DNA of 64,000 bases from contig JBGAHS010000004.1 of the NCBI GenBank assembly GCA_044226015.1, positions 384,001 through 448,000 on the forward strand. The letters are read 5' to 3'. Below, in pieces: positions 7,744 to 16,682 of the stretch. How positions within the stretch are numbered: the stretch's first letter is position 1; each line of letters starts with the position of its first letter. The translations under genes and the position numbers were made by a program. The notes under the pieces were generated by a model. It was not told the DNA's origin. It worked only from the letters and a program-made list of their open reading frames with translations, and did not search any database. This DNA comes from Candidatus Obscuribacteraceae bacterium. Lineage in GTDB: Bacteria; Cyanobacteriota; Vampirovibrionia; Obscuribacterales; Obscuribacteraceae.

Positions 7744-9699
7744 TTGACTAAGTTCCGAACCATTTTGCTCATTGGCGTTTTGGCCCTGATAGTGGCAGCT
7801 TGCAAGACTGCCACCGTAATTGATACCAAGAGCGTGAAATTGAATACGAGCACGTCAACTGATACTTCTGTCGAAGCCGAGTTAGTCCAAAAGGGGCAGC
7901 AAAATGTTTCGTGTTCGCAAGCACCTGGACCTTACGAGACCATTGAGAAGGACTCTGAGCAATGCAAACAAGGCCGTTTTCCGCCTGGAAGTCACGGCGG
8001 TAAGTTGGTAGTTGCCACCGTATCTGGTGAACCAAAAACTGTAAACCCCTGGGTGGCAGAAGATGCTTTGTCGCAAGAAATGAGCAATCTGATGTTTCGC
8101 GGGCTGGGTGATATCGATGAATTTACCGGTGAAATCATACCTGACTTAGCTGTTGAGATTAAAGAAGAGCCCGACCATCTCACCTATACTACTACGTTGC
8201 GCAAAGGGCTTCGTTGGTCTGATGGTGAGCCTATCAGCGCCGATGATGTCGCGTTCACTTGGAACACAATAGTAGCTCAAGGATTTGGCAATCCCAATAT
8301 ACGAGAGGCTGCTCTGGTTGATGGCAATTTGCCTGTTTGCACTGTCGAAGGTGAGTTAACAAATAAGTTCGTCTGTAGCAAACCGTCTTATCCTTTCAAG
8401 CGTGTTCTTGCCACAATTAGGATTGCTCCAAAGCACGTCATCGAGCCAGTTGTGAACTCCAGAGATTCGCGTGCCGACTTTCAAAAACTATGGGCGTTCG
8501 GGCAAGATCAAAGTCATATGGTGAGCAACGGACCGTTTTCGTTGGTTGATTTTGCCCCAGGCGAGCGCGTTGAATTCGCAAGAGCCAGTTCGTTTTACAT
8601 GATCGATAAAAACGGCAGTACACTGCCATATTTGGATCGTCTGGTTTATATCATTCAGCCCGAAGCCGGCTCTGTTGTTTTGAGTTTTGGTAAGAAGGAA
8701 GCTGACATCGCACAATTTAGACCTAAGGATAAATCTTGGATTGAATCTCAGCAGAAAGAGCAAAACTCTAAGGTATATGATCTAGGACCTGCCAGCGTTA
8801 CCACGTTTCTCGTGTTTAATATGAACCAGAGAACTGAAGCACACAAGAAGAAAAATCTTGTGGATTTGTCAAAGAAAGAATGGTTCAACGACCTGAACTT
8901 CAGGCAAGCGATAAATCATGTAATCGATAGAAAAGCTGTCATAGACAGTTTCTACAAAGGGGCTGCATCTCAAATTGTTAGCACCGAGCCTGCCTCATCT
9001 CCTTATTTCAACAAAGCACTTAAAGCAATTCCTGTAAATCTAAAAGAAGCCAGTGCACTGCTTTCCAAATCGGGGTTTGTACAGAAGGCTGATGCTTGCT
9101 ATGACAAAAATGGAAAAAAAGTTGAGTTCACCCTTTCCTATCTTAAAGCGAGTAAGTTCTACCAATCGATGGCTGAGCAGATCGTGAAAGATCTGAAAAC
9201 TCTGGGTATCACCGTCACTCTTGACCCCGTCGAGACAGCGGCTGCACAAGACCTATTGTTGGCCAGAAAAGCATGGGAAGCTCAGCTATGTATGTTCAGT
9301 GCAGACCCGTTAGAGCCGTCGTTAAGTTCAAATCTATACAAGTCTACTGGTCGCCTACACCTTTTCGACCAACGAGAAGCTGATTGGAAGGGCAATATCG
9401 TGGTTGATGATATTCGCCCGTGGGAAAAGCAAATCGATGACATTTACGATCAAGCCGCTTCAGAGTTTGACAAGGAAAAGCGCAAGGCATTGTTTTTTGA
9501 ATCGCAAAAGGTTATCTACGAGCAGGCGCCATTTATTTATTTGATTAGTCCAGATGTTGTCTTAGGTGCACGAAACACTGTTCGCAATTATTGTCCGACT
9601 CCTTTGGCGCAAGCATCATACGGCTTGCACAATGTAGAAGAGGTTTATATTGATTTGAGTCAACAGCCGCAAGAGAAGCCTGCGGAGAATAAGCAATGA
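7744..9699 (+). CDS. ABC transporter substrate-binding lipoprotein, family 5 (oligopeptide/nickel type)
   Basis: Lipobox IVAAC; LRKGLRWSDGEPISADDVAFTW signature; NGPF; FRQAINHVIDR. Confidence 0.92.
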   Translation: MTKFRTILLIGVLALIVAACKTATVIDTKSVKLNTSTSTDTSVEAELVQKGQQNVSCSQAPGPYETIEKDSEQCKQGRFPPGSHGGKLVVATVSGEPKTVNPWVAEDALSQEMSNLMFRGLGDIDEFTGEIIPDLAVEIKEEPDHLTYTTTLRKGLRWSDGEPISADDVAFTWNTIVAQGFGNPNIREAALVDGNLPVCTVEGELTNKFVCSKPSYPFKRVLATIRIAPKHVIEPVVNSRDSRADFQKLWAFGQDQSHMVSNGPFSLVDFAPGERVEFARASSFYMIDKNGSTLPYLDRLVYIIQPEAGSVVLSFGKKEADIAQFRPKDKSWIESQQKEQNSKVYDLGPASVTTFLVFNMNQRTEAHKKKNLVDLSKKEWFNDLNFRQAINHVIDRKAVIDSFYKGAASQIVSTEPASSPYFNKALKAIPVNLKEASALLSKSGFVQKADACYDKNGKKVEFTLSYLKASKFYQSMAEQIVKDLKTLGITVTLDPVETAAAQDLLLARKAWEAQLCMFSADPLEPSLSSNLYKSTGRLHLFDQREADWKGNIVVDDIRPWEKQIDDIYDQAASEFDKEKRKALFFESQKVIYEQAPFIYLISPDVVLGARNTVRNYCPTPLAQASYGLHNVEEVYIDLSQQPQEKPAENKQ

Positions 9700-9908
9700 A
9701 CAATGAAATGAACCTGGGATTTATTGTTCCTGCGGTCATCGCTGTTTGTGCCGCTGTTTGGACTGTGTTGATAGCTTTTCGGTGGAAAGGGGATAAGTTT
9801 CTCTGCGACACCTGTCGTTTTAACAACGAAGAGGATTGCAAGAAAACAGAACGTCCTCGGGCCGAAGTTTGTTATGCATATCGTGAAAAAACTGATATGT
9901 TGAAATGA
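9696..9908 (+). CDS. Small membrane protein with four Cys
   Basis: 70 aa; ATGA overlap with upstream gene; TM helix then CDTC-x7-C-x10-C. Confidence 0.75.
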   Translation: MNNEMNLGFIVPAVIAVCAAVWTVLIAFRWKGDKFLCDTCRFNNEEDCKKTERPRAEVCYAYREKTDMLK

Positions 9909-9966: not shown

Positions 9967-11394
9967 TTAGTCGTCTTCTAATTCGTCTTTCGCTTTGATG
10001 CGTCCTGATTTAATAGCAGCCAACAAGAGTGCATGGTCTCGCTCAACCTGGTCCGCATAATTCAATGCAAAGTCTGTGACCGCAGCGTCAAAGCTTGCAT
10101 CTTCCAGTCCACCAAGATAACCACTGATGGTGGCGGCATCACCTGATCTTGCATGTGCTCTTGCAAGAACATAACCCATCACCTCTGCGATTTCGATAGT
10201 CTGTGGACCTTCCCAGAGTTCGGGATCGGGCTTCACTTTTGTATCGCGCAATTGTCTAATATAGAAGTGTTTGCCGTTGTCGAACTTTGTCCAACCTAAG
10301 AAAATGTCGCTGGCTGATTGAATAATTCTCTGCCCTTCTACGACTCGCTGACCTCTGTTTTCAAAACTGCTCTTACCTACGTAAGGCTGCAAGACTGATT
10401 CTCTTGCTTCTTTGATTTGCAGGAGGAGTGGCTCATTGTCTGGTGCGAGCATGAGTGCTACTGCGCAGAGCGTTCCTACGCTACCAATGCCAACAACTTT
10501 AATCGCTACGTCTTCGAGTCTGTATCGGTTAATCAGTCTTCTCTTATCTTCCTGAAGAGATTCCTTGTACAGATCGAACGCTTTCTCAATTTGCCCAGCG
10601 AAAATTTTTCCGTCTGCACCCTGCATGTGATACATGGTTGGTGGTGTGTCTTTGAAAACAAATCCACCGCCCGAGCGCTCTGCAAATTTTGGAAAGTAGT
10701 AATCCTGAATTGTGCGCTTTAGTTCCTTCTTCAGTCGGGCTTGTCGTTTTTTCTGCAAATCTTCATCTGAAGTTCTTTCTATGACGCTTTGCCAATCAAC
10801 TCTTTCATACCAAATATCGAGAATGCTCATTCGAGAGAATTGAGTGATCTTCTGTCGATAGGCACGAACAACTGCTTCTGCAGCCATTGCTTCGTATTTT
10901 GGTTTCAACCCGTTTTCTCTTGCAGACAGAACGAAACTTACGGCTAGCCGCTTCACGTCCCATTCCCATGGTGCAGGAAGCGTTTCATCAAAGTCGTTAA
11001 TGTCAAACATGATGTTTCGTTCTGGCGTCGCGAAGGCGCCAAAGTTCAGAAGGTGACAGTCTCCGCATGCTTGAACTGGAATGCTTGTGTTTGCAAATGA
11101 GCCGAGGTCCATTGCCATCAGTGCTGCAGCACCCCGATAAAAAGTGAAGGCAGACTGCATCATTCGTCCATAGCGCAGGGGAATTAGTTCCTCAAGCCTG
11201 CCTTCATTTGAAGCTTCTAGCACTGCTATTGGGTCTGGTCGATTGACCGGAACTCGCCAGCCAGCGTGTCCGCTGTGCGGCTTGGCGACCGCAATAGCCT
11301 TTCCTCGGGCGCGCCTGTCATCTCGTGGCGAGAGTGTGGCGTCATGGAGAAGTGCTTCTTCGTCCGTAAACTTGTGAGACTTATCGCTACTCAC
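9967..11394 (-). CDS. DUF2252 family protein (kinase-like fold)
   Basis: RYGRM..SAFTFYRGAA, CGDCHLLNFG, FDINDFDE, KVVGIGSVG, LARAHARSGD; start moved to GTG 11394 behind GAGAGGA RBS (ORF open to 11595). Confidence 0.92.
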   Translation of the reverse strand: MSSDKSHKFTDEEALLHDATLSPRDDRRARGKAIAVAKPHSGHAGWRVPVNRPDPIAVLEASNEGRLEELIPLRYGRMMQSAFTFYRGAAALMAMDLGSFANTSIPVQACGDCHLLNFGAFATPERNIMFDINDFDETLPAPWEWDVKRLAVSFVLSARENGLKPKYEAMAAEAVVRAYRQKITQFSRMSILDIWYERVDWQSVIERTSDEDLQKKRQARLKKELKRTIQDYYFPKFAERSGGGFVFKDTPPTMYHMQGADGKIFAGQIEKAFDLYKESLQEDKRRLINRYRLEDVAIKVVGIGSVGTLCAVALMLAPDNEPLLLQIKEARESVLQPYVGKSSFENRGQRVVEGQRIIQSASDIFLGWTKFDNGKHFYIRQLRDTKVKPDPELWEGPQTIEIAEVMGYVLARAHARSGDAATISGYLGGLEDASFDAAVTDFALNYADQVERDHALLLAAIKSGRIKAKDELEDD

Positions 11395-11639
11395 AGATTG
11401 TTCCTCTCTTCGTCGACTCCTACTAAGCTTATTCCAATTGCGGCAGCAAAAACAACGCTTGAGGAGTGTTCTGCAAACCCTTGAAATGTGCATTTTTAAT
11501 TTTGAGCTTTTAAGTCGGCTTTGAAACTGTCCTCCTACAAAGCTGCGGGCGGTTAAGTCCAAATGGAAGTCAAACTTTGTCAGAGCTAATAACAACTCTG
11601 TTAGTAACTTTTACTAGTGCCTTGTACCACCGCTGGAAA

Positions 11640-11838
11640 CTCTTGCAGGCTGCTTGCGTAACTCTTGCTGGATGGATACGAAGCTCTAGCAAGGTGGTTA
11701 GGTAACTCTTGATGGCTGAATGCTCTTGCAGGCTGGTTGCGTAACTCTTGCTGGTTGGATACGAAGCTCTTGCAAGCTGGTTACCGTTACTCTTGCTGGC
11801 CGGTTACGCTTGGATGTACTTTTGCTGGATGCGGTTAG
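11640..11838. repeat. Degenerate tandem array of nine ~22-bp units (core CTCTTGCWGG) with 83-bp higher-order repeat
   Basis: Unit starts at 11640, 11662, 11684, 11706, 11723, 11745, 11767, 11790, 11819. Confidence 0.9.
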
Positions 11839-11866
11839 TGTCTTCTCCGGCGCTTAGCTGATCACA

Positions 11867-11947
11867 TTGAGTTCTCAGGAAAATTTAAATCGGTACCGTT
11901 TGAGTTCTCAGGAAAATCTATGCCGGTTGGGTTTTCAGGAAAATCTA
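11867..11947. repeat. Three direct repeats, consensus TTGAGTTCTCAGGAAAATCTA
   Basis: Copies at 11867, 11900 and 11927 with few mismatches. Confidence 0.9.
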
Positions 11948-12007
11948 CTTCGGGTAGGTTTTGTTTGAAACCTTATATATAGATGGTATCGCAGATGATG
12001 GCACGTT

Positions 12008-12179
12008 TAAAATGAAGCAAGCCTCCCTGCCGGTTCACCCACCGGACCCAAAGAGGCTTGATCCTATTACTTTGTGTTATCACCTAGATCGATAACGAAA
12101 GTTGACTGCCGCAGTTTGTTGAGATTTTCCGGGGAACACTTAGTGGGGTCCCCGCGTTCAGCGGTGTCATCAACCTCGT
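12008..12179 (-). ncRNA. Candidate structured non-coding RNA (~170 nt)
   Basis: Promoter-like sequence upstream; hairpins CCGC/GCGG, GGGGA/UCCCC, GUUAUC/GAUAAC; long 3' hairpin AAGCCUC..CCGGU-GGGUGA-ACCGG..GAGGCUU followed by GCUUCAUUUU; no ORF in the track. Confidence 0.55.
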
Positions 12180-12185
12180 AATTTC

Positions 12186-12214
12186 AATATAGCAGCTTGT
12201 CAAGAATCCGTAAA
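12186..12214 (-). promoter_or_regulatory. Sigma70-like promoter
   Basis: TTTACG-17 bp-TATATT with extended -10 TGc; predicted +1 at ~12179. Confidence 0.55.
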
Positions 12215-12340
12215 GTGGTTTGGAGAAATTTCTTGAAAGCCTCATGAATGCCGGATTTGGTATATGCGAGGCATATCCGCATCGCTGAAAATTTTCTGGT
12301 CTCTGTCTGAAACGTAAGCGTCAAAAAAGTCGCTTGTTTA

Positions 12341-15300
12341 TCAAGCTTGCTTTCCTTCCTTATCTAATAAGGCAAGGAATAGTTTTACTATGCGGGGATC
12401 CCATTCTTTGCCAGCACCTTGCTGCAAAATCTGTACCGCCTGACTGGTGGGTAGCGCTGCCCTGTATGGGCGGTCGCTCGTCATTGCAACAAAGGCATCA
12501 ACGACCGAAATAATCCTTGATTCAAGAGGAATGTCATCGCCCTTTAATCCCCGTGGATAGCCCGAGCCGTCCCAGTGCTCATGGTAAGACTCGACTACGG
12601 TTGCCACTCTATGAAGGTGCTTGGCGGGTTCGAGAATTTTAGCCGCAGTAATTGGTGCTGTTTCGATCAATTTCCACTCGTCGGCAGTCAGTGGACCGCT
12701 CTTGCGCAGAACTTCTTCATCAACAATTACTTTACCAAGATTGTTCAAAACGGCAGCAAGTGAAATTACTGTAGTATGGTCTTTCGATAGGCGCAAAGCC
12801 TGTGCTATGCGGCTTGCATATTCTGCTGCTCTTGGTGAACGGTCGTCGTTGTAGCCATCTTTCGAGGAGACAGCTTTGATAACGTTGCCGAGCATACCCA
12901 GAATTCCGTGTTCTGCAATCATATGCAAATCGGTGATGGCCGACTCAATGCGTTGGGCGACTCCTGCGCCGTTCGGCTTCATTGATGGCATGGTTGGTGG
13001 CTGCGGTACTGCAGGTGGTGCAGGCTTCGCTGCTTCTTTCTTTGGTTCGTCGGTCGTGCCAGTGGCTCCGGCTCTCTTCGAATTGAAGACCTGATTTCTG
13101 CCATTGCCTTTGGCGAGGAAAAGGTATTTGTCAGCGAGTTCAAGTAAGCGCACTTTATCTTGAGCATCTGAAGGGAATGTCGCGACGCCAACTGATGCTG
13201 TGATTTTTCCCATACCAAGTCTGGCCGCTGTCGCGTGATTGATTTTTCCTTCTTCCAGTTTTGCTTGAATCTTCTCCTGGCAATCTGGTGATTTGAATTT
13301 CTCGATCGTGCTTTCTCTGATGCTCTGGCAGATTCGTTCTGCTACCACAAGCGCAGCATTCGAGTCGGTTTCTGGCAATAGAACAACAAACTCTTCACCG
13401 CCAAATCTACCCACAGTGTCAACGTCACGAACACACTTTTTGACAATGGCTGATGTATGTTTTAACGCCACGTCACCATTGAGGTGGTCGAGAGTATCAT
13501 TGACGCTCTTGAAGTGGTCGAGGTCGAGAATGATGAATGAGCAGGCGTGACCGAAGCGCTGGTGACGATCTAATTCCTTATTGAGCTGTTCTTCGAAGTA
13601 GCGCCTGTTGTAGAGTCCGGTAAGTGCGTCAGTGATAGCCTGGCGTTCTACCTTCTCGAAGAGTTCTTTGTGTTCGACTACTACCGCGACGCGATTTAGA
13701 AGGTCTTGAATCATACGCATATCAGGCAGTGATGGAGGTTTCTGCATGGATGACACCATGCATAGAGCACCTTTCAGGCTGCTTCCTTGTCTTAAAGGAA
13801 ACAGCATCGTGAGCTGCATTGACTCAGGGATTTCAACTTCGAGATCACCCATATTGTTTTTCAAGTCAGCCGCACTCAACATCAATGCTGGCATTGGCTG
13901 CGAGAGTAGATCTGGATGGCTCAATGCATCGTACTGTGCGGTGAAGAGATTACTCGCCATGTGTTGCAAGACAAGCGAATTCTCTTCGGTCGATAAGGTA
14001 CCTGCACATTGTGCTTCTGTGAACTTTTCTTCCAGTGAGTCCCACATTGCCACTGCCGCTAAACCTAACTCAAAATGCCGAGCCAGTTCGGAAACCAGGG
14101 TCTGCAAAATTGGATTTACTTCCTTCAATGACTGTTGAATCTGCTCAGATACAGTATTGATTAGAGTTTCTCTGCCCCATTGCTGACGAATTTGAGCGTT
14201 AGCTTGTTCAGCTCTGATAATTGAGGCAAGGTTACCCGCTACTGTTAGTGCAAGTTCTCTGTCCTGCGGGCGCAGCATTGGGCTGCCTTGTTTTCTTCGC
14301 CAGAGACCCATTACACCGAGCTTTTCGCCTTCCGATATAAGAGGAATGATCATGGCGGTGTCATGTCCAAAAAATGGATCGCCGCGCTTGCTGTATTCTA
14401 TATTTACTGTTTTCAGTTTTCCATTTTCAAAAACCTGTAAAAATGGATTTTGTTTATGAGCAAATGGAATATTTTCAGAATGCTCTTTCTCGGAAATTTG
14501 AGGAACAAGCATGTATTCCTCTTCGTTGAACAGATAGACCTGCGCAGAAGTGAAGTTGGTGTGGTCCGCGAATAACTTGATCGCTTCTTCAATTGTTTTC
14601 TGGGCGCGTTGACCCGCAGACTCTCGGAAAATCGTAGCGATTTCGTTAACGATTTTCATTTCGTTAGCGTCTTGTTCGATTCGCATCAAGTCGAAAGACT
14701 GCTGTACAACAAGAGACAGTACTTCAGAGACGCTTTGTAGAACTGCACCGTCCTGGTCTGTCCACTCTCTAGGTGTACCGCTTTGCTGTAACTCAATAAA
14801 ACCATGGAAGATACCACGGCTTCTAACCTGTGCTACCAGGCGTGCCCTTGCGTCTCCAAGTTCAATGAGTGCCGCTAGAGTAGGAGACATTCTTCTCAAC
14901 TTTTGATCTTGCAGCGTGTCTGGAATTCCGATAACACCAGCACCAGTTTCGTCAGGGAAGCGGGAGAGGAACTCAGAGACTATGGCGGTTGTCTCTTGTG
15001 CTCCGAGATTTGCGCCTTTGAAGCAATAGTGTCCATTCTGTGCAAACTCGTTTGTGACAACGAGTTGGTCGTCCACCACTTGCCAGATTAAACCGCGGTC
15101 TGAGCGACTGACTTTCGTCATTTCCTCAACTGCTAAATCCAAAATTGCTGGCAGGTCGCTGGAAATGCGCAGCTGTCCGATAATGTCTTTGATGATTTTT
15201 TGAGCATCAGGTGCAAAAACCGAACGCACTTCTTGCGTGATATTTGTCCATGCTTCGCGCAGCGATTGAATGTTTCGGTTGCTCTTTCTATCGGGTGGTG

Positions 15301-16483
15301 CAATTCCCGCGAGCTTCGCATCCATTGGGTCGGGACCCGCTGGAGGCTGTAAGGCACCGCTGGCGGTGATACTCTCGAAATTGAATTCTTCTTCAAGGAG
15401 GCTGGGGTCGCCGAAAACGTTTCCGCCCATGTCGGGATCATCTTCTGCCGCAATGGGTCCAGCCCCGGGCTTTCCATGATTGCCACCATTACCATTTCCG
15501 CCATTTCCTGTTCCTTCGCTAGTTGGTCCTGGTTTGCTGATAACAGTCTTGGAACTTGGTCCAACCAGGTCGTCGATGGCGCTGGAGTCTAGAAGTGATG
15601 ATGCCCCACGCTTAGGCACTTCGCCCGTGGGTGGATGTGTGCTTCGACCTGTCGGTCGAGGCTTTGCTGGCGGCGGCACCTGCCGTGGAATGGGCGGACC
15701 CGGCGGTGGCGGCGGTACGTTCGTAGGTCTCATCATCGAGACTTCGCCTGTGTCACCAGGCCTGACTACATGTTGAGGGTGTCGCAAGGAAGCGGCATTG
15801 TTCGAACCGATTGCCGCGCTTGGAGTCATCAAAGGGTCGGTATTAGCACCTGGTCGAGGAACTGTTTCGATGGCTCCTTCACCCCGGAAAGGCATACCAG
15901 GCAAGGGGGGCGGCGTAGACCCCGGCACTGCTCGTTGTTTGACCACGGGCCAGTCATTGCGTATGCCAGAAACGAAATGCGGCGCTGTAACTGGGTTTCC
16001 GACGTGCGCTTTTGAGTCATCGAGCCGATTTGACTCAGGAAGGTCGATGTACTGCCAGAGCGAGGTCATCGCCTGGTAGGCGCGCTTAACAATGTGCGGG
16101 TCTATCGAACCAACGCACTGGAAAACTCTTTCGGAGCCGCTCTCGTCTGAGCAATGTCCATAAACTACCATCGAAATGCCCTGGCTATGAACCAGAAAGC
16201 AGAATTCGTCTTGCTTATCGTGATTGTTTTCGGAAAATATCGATACGCGAACAGCGTCGCGAGTTAAGGTTCGAAACTGGTTTGCCTCTGGTATCAACCA
16301 TTTTGCGTCTCTGGTTGACCAATAGACGATTACTGGTGACAGTCCATGGAAAATGACGCTTTCTTCAATTCTGCGGAAGAATGGCAGAAATTCTTGTGCC
16401 ACGAGACTGCTGAGCGGCAGTGCACCAGGACCTGCCTGCTGCACGAGCATCATGAATAGCTGTGTTCTCGCCTGCTCTACCAT
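12341..16483 (-). CDS. Multidomain diguanylate cyclase: DICT-like sensor, Pro-rich linker, ~3 GAF, GGDEF, degenerate HD-GYP
   Basis: TDALTGLYNRRYF, DLDHFKSVND, RDVD I-site, GRFGGEEF; HEHWDGSGYP and DAFVAMTSDRPYR; start likely ATG 16483 (ORF open to 16510). Confidence 0.9.
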   Translation of the reverse strand: MVEQARTQLFMMLVQQAGPGALPLSSLVAQEFLPFFRRIEESVIFHGLSPVIVYWSTRDAKWLIPEANQFRTLTRDAVRVSIFSENNHDKQDEFCFLVHSQGISMVVYGHCSDESGSERVFQCVGSIDPHIVKRAYQAMTSLWQYIDLPESNRLDDSKAHVGNPVTAPHFVSGIRNDWPVVKQRAVPGSTPPPLPGMPFRGEGAIETVPRPGANTDPLMTPSAAIGSNNAASLRHPQHVVRPGDTGEVSMMRPTNVPPPPPGPPIPRQVPPPAKPRPTGRSTHPPTGEVPKRGASSLLDSSAIDDLVGPSSKTVISKPGPTSEGTGNGGNGNGGNHGKPGAGPIAAEDDPDMGGNVFGDPSLLEEEFNFESITASGALQPPAGPDPMDAKLAGIAPPDRKSNRNIQSLREAWTNITQEVRSVFAPDAQKIIKDIIGQLRISSDLPAILDLAVEEMTKVSRSDRGLIWQVVDDQLVVTNEFAQNGHYCFKGANLGAQETTAIVSEFLSRFPDETGAGVIGIPDTLQDQKLRRMSPTLAALIELGDARARLVAQVRSRGIFHGFIELQQSGTPREWTDQDGAVLQSVSEVLSLVVQQSFDLMRIEQDANEMKIVNEIATIFRESAGQRAQKTIEEAIKLFADHTNFTSAQVYLFNEEEYMLVPQISEKEHSENIPFAHKQNPFLQVFENGKLKTVNIEYSKRGDPFFGHDTAMIIPLISEGEKLGVMGLWRRKQGSPMLRPQDRELALTVAGNLASIIRAEQANAQIRQQWGRETLINTVSEQIQQSLKEVNPILQTLVSELARHFELGLAAVAMWDSLEEKFTEAQCAGTLSTEENSLVLQHMASNLFTAQYDALSHPDLLSQPMPALMLSAADLKNNMGDLEVEIPESMQLTMLFPLRQGSSLKGALCMVSSMQKPPSLPDMRMIQDLLNRVAVVVEHKELFEKVERQAITDALTGLYNRRYFEEQLNKELDRHQRFGHACSFIILDLDHFKSVNDTLDHLNGDVALKHTSAIVKKCVRDVDTVGRFGGEEFVVLLPETDSNAALVVAERICQSIRESTIEKFKSPDCQEKIQAKLEEGKINHATAARLGMGKITASVGVATFPSDAQDKVRLLELADKYLFLAKGNGRNQVFNSKRAGATGTTDEPKKEAAKPAPPAVPQPPTMPSMKPNGAGVAQRIESAITDLHMIAEHGILGMLGNVIKAVSSKDGYNDDRSPRAAEYASRIAQALRLSKDHTTVISLAAVLNNLGKVIVDEEVLRKSGPLTADEWKLIETAPITAAKILEPAKHLHRVATVVESYHEHWDGSGYPRGLKGDDIPLESRIISVVDAFVAMTSDRPYRAALPTSQAVQILQQGAGKEWDPRIVKLFLALLDKEGKQA

Positions 16484-16682
16484 GGCATCCAATCGCCAAG
16501 TACACGCCAACTGCCAATTGGGTTAGGGATTGCCACTTTCCCCCCCACACCCCTCGTACCCTGGATTCTTTACAGCTAATCACAATCAAGCCTTCTAGCT
16601 GCGTAGAACTTAACAGAAGCTGTCGAGCGCTTGTGAACATGGCTTACCTGGTAGACAATATGAACAAAGCAGGTGAGAGATA

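Follow-up and report, generated by a model that had tools for sequence, protein, structure and literature searches.

A family-conserved candidate structured RNA and genome-specific repeats between a GGDEF-HD and a DUF2252 gene of Obscuribacteraceae

The interval and its flanking genes

The interval lies in a window of 64,000 nucleotides (the whole stretch of DNA analysed, to which all coordinates refer unless another contig is named) between two minus-strand genes recognized by Pfam matches, a GAF-GGDEF-HD gene (12341-16510) and a DUF2252 gene (9967-11394). As the congener proteins begin at the matching place, the DUF2252 start is most likely the GTG codon at 11394, the Pfam match beginning further in; from there to the end of the GAF-GGDEF-HD gene at 12341 the gap is 946 bp. 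An earlier note, made from the letters alone, had read in this gap of about 950 bp a promoter, a structured RNA segment, a triplet of direct repeats and a 22-bp array, all of which are present in the sequence, and had proposed that the parts act together.

Several smaller features surround these elements. An alignment of four spacers gave a short minus-strand element (11429-11440), about 35-45 nt before the DUF2252 start and common to three congeners, which is possibly a promoter element of that gene. At the other end of the gap an imperfect inverted repeat (window 12245-12285), between the GGDEF-HD stop codon and the RNA promoter, is possibly the terminator of the GGDEF-HD gene. Beyond DUF2252 a plus-strand gene (9696-9908) encodes a 70-residue membrane-anchored four-cysteine protein that has no Pfam match. 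It belongs to a conserved type of 60-90 residues with one membrane helix and four cysteines; in many genomes of the family its gene is the last of a peptide ABC transporter operon.

Conservation, promoter and predicted fold of the RNA

The predicted stand-alone non-coding RNA of about 170 nt (12010-12180, minus strand) was recognized by conservation, and its ends were inferred from the promoter and the 3' hairpin. A covariance model, R1, was built from 19 sequences and used with a match threshold of E<=0.1. It matched 88 of 103 genomes of the Obscuribacteraceae-level family, 87 of them at E<1e-9, whereas the weak 88th match lacked the 3' hairpin. Homologues were 166-241 nt in length and were nearly always present as one copy per family genome, this genome having exactly one. 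None of three sister-family genomes matched the model, and the sole match among 140 other genomes of the phylum (E=0.095) lacked the 3' hairpin and was not a credible copy. When DNA of the locus was searched against 60 relatives the RNA part alone was matched, once per genome, in 27 of 36 genomes of the same family and in none of 24 others. The exact 3'-end pattern was found in 63 stretches among 185,579 species genomes; by their titles, which are the depositors' labels, 42 were Obscuribacterales or Melainabacteria, seven cyanobacteria, seven only "bacterium" and seven other taxa. A 16-nt loop pattern allowing one mismatch was too loose for copy counts. Viral contigs gave no matches to the RNA hairpin or to the repeat, and the 48 metagenome loci found all lay on contigs longer than 1 kb, which makes them uninformative on transcription. 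Fifteen of the 103 family genomes had no R1 match and, as five of these that were 90-95% complete were still empty on deeper search, the RNA has probably been lost or much changed in some family lines. In three RNA-less genomes nothing was found behind the GGDEF-HD orthologue.

The anatomy of the RNA was studied in 51 distinct homologues aligned to the model, from which duplicates, near-duplicates and cut copies had been removed. Because the 3' module was the means of finding most homologues, its high conservation is partly built in and overstated; 16 further members found by the model include loop variants and copies that lack GGAG. The predicted sigma-70 promoter (12186-12214, minus strand), identified by a motif match and conserved in homologues, consists of a -35 box TTTACG (12214-12209), a 17-nt spacer and an extended -10 box TATATT (12191-12186). 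It is the only sigma-70-like site on the minus strand of the interval, where 1.0 would be expected by chance. Among the 51 homologues the best hexamer just upstream was TATAAT in 31 cases, agreed with it at five of six positions in 15, at four in four and at three in one, and TTG stood at -35 spacing in 35 of the loci. In 24 of 51 homologues the promoter spacer (window 12192-12208, minus strand) carries CTTG about one turn past the -35 box; this may be a regulator site, and its similarity to the core of the 22-bp array is probably due to chance. A small peptide translated from the Shine-Dalgarno-like GGAG and an NUG codon in the hairpin was considered and rejected, since the frame behind GGAG ran from 1 to 100 codons, with one stop at codon 2 and one frameshift. 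Given this variation the RNA was considered non-coding, and we regard the locus as very likely a transcribed non-coding RNA.

The RNA segment folded with a z score of -2.9, and two of 200 shuffled sequences were as stable. The predicted 5' domain (12098-12177, minus strand) has an imperfect closing stem, an asymmetric bubble and an apical hairpin (12154-12130). With the apical helix enforced, the medians over the 51 homologues were 19 closing pairs, 7 + 18 nt in the bubble, 24 nt in the apical hairpin (range 18-37 nt) and 95 nt in span, and at least 14 closing pairs were formed in 46 of the 51. A variable linker hairpin (12076-12096, minus strand), also from the predicted fold and with a linker column conservation of 0.41, leads into the 3' module (12018-12065, minus strand), which alignment and covariation resolve into a purine-rich lead-in, a 12-bp stem, a 3-nt bulge, a 5-bp stem and a GNGUGA loop (12040-12035). 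This module is likely to be a terminator and a protein handle. The U-tract is uneven, with at least four U residues in 6 nt in 31 of the 51 homologues. Its lower stem was 99.8% paired and both sides had changed in 8 of 12 pairs. For the whole structure 96% of the cells were paired and 15 of 24 pairs had changed on both sides, which none of 500 shuffles equalled, in an alignment fitted to the structure and composed of related sequences. As there were 25 G-U and no A-C wobble cells among 867, the fold was assigned to the strand of the promoter.

The 5' domain is less certain than the 3' domain, because single 5' domains were only weakly stable (median z of -0.5, with 6 of 46 below -1.5) and because alignment folding recovered the 3' hairpin alone and not the 5' closing stem. 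The arms of the predicted rod paired with their own partner at -19.1 kcal/mol (n=51) versus -14.1 kcal/mol (n=2256) with the arms of distant homologues, defined as less than 60% identical, a comparison in which kin are not independent; the own partner was the best in 9 of 51 cases and within the top tenth in 29. Column conservation was 0.48 and 0.64 for the two bubble strands versus 0.90-0.95 for the paired apical stem, and the 18-nt bubble strand is accessible in the predicted fold. A pseudoknot between loop and bubble (GUGA with UCAY) could form in 29 of 51 homologues and was set aside; it showed no covariation, as the loop hardly varies.

The usual upstream neighbour of the RNA is the GGDEF-HD gene, found there in 42 of the 48 loci having at least 600 nt of upstream sequence (of 43 matches in total one was downstream). 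On the other side DUF2252 follows in only 4 of 51 loci, all within this genus, the gene for the small membrane protein is convergent with the RNA in 28 of 51, with its stop codon no more than 100 nt from the hairpin in 13, and the remaining loci have unrelated same-strand genes. The coding region of the convergent small gene never overlaps the RNA hairpin, the distance being 1-1361 nt; its 3' UTR could do so. The comparison with relatives thus agrees with the view that no flanking gene explains the RNA locus and shows an RNA gene that is conserved together with a promoter of its own, but neither the repeats nor the adjacency to DUF2252 is family-wide.

The two repeat sets behind the RNA

The 22-bp tandem array (11632-11835), found by repeat search, is specific to this locus. 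It consists of nine imperfect units from 11640 to 11819 having a CTCTTGC-type core and spacings of 22, 22, 22, 17, 22, 22, 23 and 29, and contains a nested 83-bp duplication of 89% identity. That the units are 64-96% alike and contain a nested duplication argues against an assembly artefact. The genome contains 756 tandem arrays in all, this one included, of which 197 are intergenic and at least 80 bp long; the 22-bp array has no second copy in the genome and none elsewhere among the 197 loci compared. The spacer between the RNA and DUF2252 is 647 nt here, versus 166-257 nt in three congeners that retain both genes. Their spacer contains neither the triplet nor the 22-bp array and has only the short element before DUF2252 in common with that of this genome, and one congener carries a different array there. 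Most simply read, the repeats have expanded locally in a weakly constrained spacer.

The triplet had been taken for a local operator, but the genome-wide motif search places it in a dispersed family. Its three 19-21-bp direct repeats, at 11869, 11902 and 11929, are decayed half-units (11867-11948, with one full core at 11891-11917) of a family of dispersed 50-69-bp units centred on a GGTACC palindrome, for which the genome has 265 core matches in 56 clusters. Matches to the repeat arm numbered 75 in this genome and zero in 103 relatives, and palindromic cores numbered 134 here and zero in seven congeners. By crude gene calls, 12 of 20 intergenic arrays of the family lay between convergent genes compared with 366 of 2189 gaps overall. 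The work reveals a burst of palindromic tandem repeats specific to this genome. In PMC3733652, REP/BIME and REPIN elements are described as species-specific, intergenic, palindromic, clustered in tandem and often situated between convergent genes. The triplet family is alike in being a species-specific intergenic palindrome present in many clusters, but differs from the elements as presented there in being centred on GGTACC and in having a consensus without the terminal GTAG or CGTC tag (PMC3733652). A Y1 (RAYT-type) transposase, PF01797, was not found in this genome. Among the repeated palindromes GGATCC occurred in 27 arrays and GGTACC in 20; over the whole genome both words are under-represented. 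The sub-families of repeats cluster by region, each region having its own variant (C1 240-870 kb, C7 555-793 kb, C4 69-125 kb and C6 51-73 kb), which suggests local spread.

The composite system of the earlier note is not supported by these distributions, the RNA being family-wide and both repeat sets being found in this genome only. The inverted match of 15 of 19 positions between the RNA (12121-12139) and the plus-strand repeat is present as read, but such identity is common by chance. It was attained in 6 of 48 comparisons of an RNA with its own 700-nt flank and in 35 of 288 cross-genome comparisons (12%), the mean best identity being 13.9 and 13.8, respectively. A link between the RNA and the GGTACC repeats, in which the repeats at some 56 loci would derive from, or be paired by, the apical-stem/bubble segment, is thus improbable, even though some scores favour it. 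The match of the RNA to the repeat profile had a nominal p of about 0.003, and relatives showed no counterpart of it. An ungapped repeat profile gave 19.4 bits and ranked it first of 60 homologues, none of 600 random windows or 300 shuffles scoring as high, and a profile HMM ranked it first of 67 and gave 5.8 bits, a score that 7 of 2000 shuffles and 10 of 3000 windows reached. Near-matches to its 16-mer numbered 100 versus 21 for the reverse. However, the match was chosen post hoc and covers 16 nt only, and the 35 cross-genome cases are unrelated pairs. One congener gave no cognate excess for its own segment (63 matches versus 63 for the control) and, although a second gave 58 versus 29, the same segment gave 61 versus 34 in a non-cognate genome. 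Moreover, a hairpin ties up half of the RNA segment and a terminator-like hairpin precedes the repeats, so that a duplex of -15.8 kcal/mol would have to open a hairpin of -12 kcal/mol and would need transcription to continue past the terminator. Finally, the repeats are missing from 103 relatives, most of which carry the RNA. A small residual likeness of the RNA segment to the repeat family remains. Still less likely is a protein-binding platform made by the repeats and regulating the RNA or DUF2252. The CTCTTGC core recurring at a two-turn spacing of 22 bp and the CTTG of the promoter spacer would suit a bound protein, but both repeat sets are missing from the same spacer of three congeners, one with a different array, the repeats follow the RNA and stop about 190 nt or more short of the conserved DUF2252 element, and the genome holds hundreds of unrelated arrays. 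We therefore consider it probable, with good confidence, that the RNA and the repeats are functionally unrelated.

Identity and proposed function of the RNA

Rfam gave nothing at gathering level in the window, and at E<=10 the interval and 20 homologous loci gave only chance-level matches; RF00013 (6S RNA) had no match at E<=10 in any of these. SRP RNA, RNase P RNA and tmRNA were dismissed as identities because each scores over its Rfam cut-off elsewhere in the genome. Sponges of the CsrB/RsmZ type have several GGA loops and go with a CsrA gene, whereas this RNA has one GGAG only and CsrA (PF02599) was not found in the 92% complete genome. A Y RNA has an end-paired Ro60-binding stem and a Ro60 gene nearby; here no Ro60 gene was among the neighbours, PF05731 (TROVE) was not found with that query and Rfam gave no match. 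Type I antitoxins overlap, or are strongly complementary to, a small toxin mRNA, and this assignment failed in that there was neither coding overlap with the convergent small gene nor a cognate pairing excess.

The closest comparison is with 6S RNA (SsrS/SsaA, RF00013), which the RNA resembles in its length of about 170-200 nt, its own sigma-70 promoter, its single copy and a stem-bubble-stem plan in which structure is better kept than sequence. The central bubble between two helices is here a predicted one (19-bp stem and 24-nt hairpin, apical helix enforced). The RNA is nevertheless not a canonical 6S RNA: it fails in RF00013 score, end-pairing and arm length. Its 5' and 3' ends do not close a single rod, the fold having two domains; the apical arm of only about 24 nt leaves no -35-like arm in the usual orientation; and there is an extra conserved 3' hairpin. 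The real 6S RNA is encoded on another contig (C6 800550-800755, minus strand) by a locus with a weak RF00013 match below the cut-off that is conserved in 20 of 40 relatives and folds as a rod. Full-length RF00013 matches, again below the cut-off, were obtained in 14 of 15 orthologous loci, and the divergent RNA adjoins a tsaE-like gene and topA, upstream of both. Judged by sequence, this locus is the family's 6S RNA, which had been unannotated and is thereby placed. According to PMC8876501, a 78-nt piece of 6S-1 consisting of the bubble and short arms retains polymerase binding and the templating of pRNA, with ten-fold lower affinity. Ms1 of Actinobacteria is presented in PMC9130861 as a lineage-restricted structured RNA that binds the RNA polymerase core and has additional terminal hairpins besides a central bubble. 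Our RNA is similar in being a lineage-restricted structured RNA with a predicted central bubble and an extra terminal hairpin, but Ms1 is 230-300 nt long and actinobacterial (PMC9130861), whereas the present RNA has no Rfam match and is a candidate for polymerase binding. A literature search found no description of this RNA and nothing pairing "Obscuribacter" with "non-coding RNA" or "Melainabacteria" with "6S RNA"; the supplements of large structured-RNA screens, which lay outside that search, could hold the motif. The RNA thus seems to represent a new family within a known class of molecules and is well supported as a gene. It is an uncatalogued family-wide structured RNA, with homologues in 87 genomes, from the uncultured, non-photosynthetic sister group of the photosynthetic cyanobacteria, and it comes with predicted ends and a testable fold.

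We consider the best explanation of the locus, with a probability of roughly 0.5, to be a family-conserved trans-acting RNA that binds protein by its shape, together with unrelated repeats that grew later. Transcription would start near 12180 from the sigma-70 promoter, and the RNA would fold into a 95-nt rod interrupted by an asymmetric single-stranded bubble, followed by a linker that is dispensable and a long 3' hairpin with a bulge. This hairpin would end and protect the transcript, perhaps also serving as a second handle for a protein, and the RNA would act in trans through a protein that recognizes its shape. The two repeat sets would have grown subsequently in the spacer behind the RNA, without a part in its function. 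Recognition by a protein is favoured, if somewhat narrowly, over base-pairing, as the geometry is steady and the paired residues are conserved, whereas the accessible strands are poorly conserved.

Alternatively, the RNA could be a base-pairing sRNA in which the 3' bubble strand or GGAG serves as the seed for mRNA or other RNA targets and the 3' hairpin is merely a conserved terminator. In its favour, sRNAs are usually laid out as promoter, structured body and terminator, and the bubble strand of 18 nt is accessible and contains UCAY in 29 of 51 homologues. We find this reading unlikely, though worth keeping in mind, given that the accessible strands are less conserved than the paired ones, that GGAG is absent from some members and that the mRNA of the convergent small gene showed no pairing excess within its own genome (-57.3 versus -58.2 kcal/mol, 29 loci). 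Least probable is action in cis, as an attenuator or riboswitch for DUF2252 or as an antisense transcript into the convergent operon. The succession of promoter, 95-nt domain, linker and terminator would fit, and the gene upstream encodes a c-di-GMP enzyme. Termination riboswitches and T-box leaders precede a constant gene on their own strand and can refold into an antiterminator. Here the downstream gene differs in identity and strand among loci and no riboswitch family scores in Rfam. A fold that does without the 3' hairpin is less stable by at least 21 kcal/mol in every one of the 51 homologues, which leaves no room for an antiterminator. As the downstream gene varies and there is no hairpin-free alternative fold, the RNA is not a leader or attenuator.

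Within the preferred reading, a protein-binding RNA acting in trans, RNA polymerase is the leading single candidate for the partner, a tentative choice made by analogy. The bubble would mimic an open promoter, as in shortened 6S RNA. If polymerase is indeed bound, 6S RNA and Ms1 would be joined by a third type of promoter mimic. A more specific version, which we think doubtful, is that of a second compact promoter mimic titrating an order-specific form of polymerase such as one with the second RpoB; in it the 19-bp closing stem would take the place of the upstream duplex and the short hairpin that of the downstream one, opposite to 6S RNA. No specific tie of the RNA to that protein emerged, as the second RpoB also occurs in genomes where the RNA was not found. 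In this genome the second, divergent RpoB gene lies on contig C11 (704580-708776), and such a gene is present in most genomes of the order.
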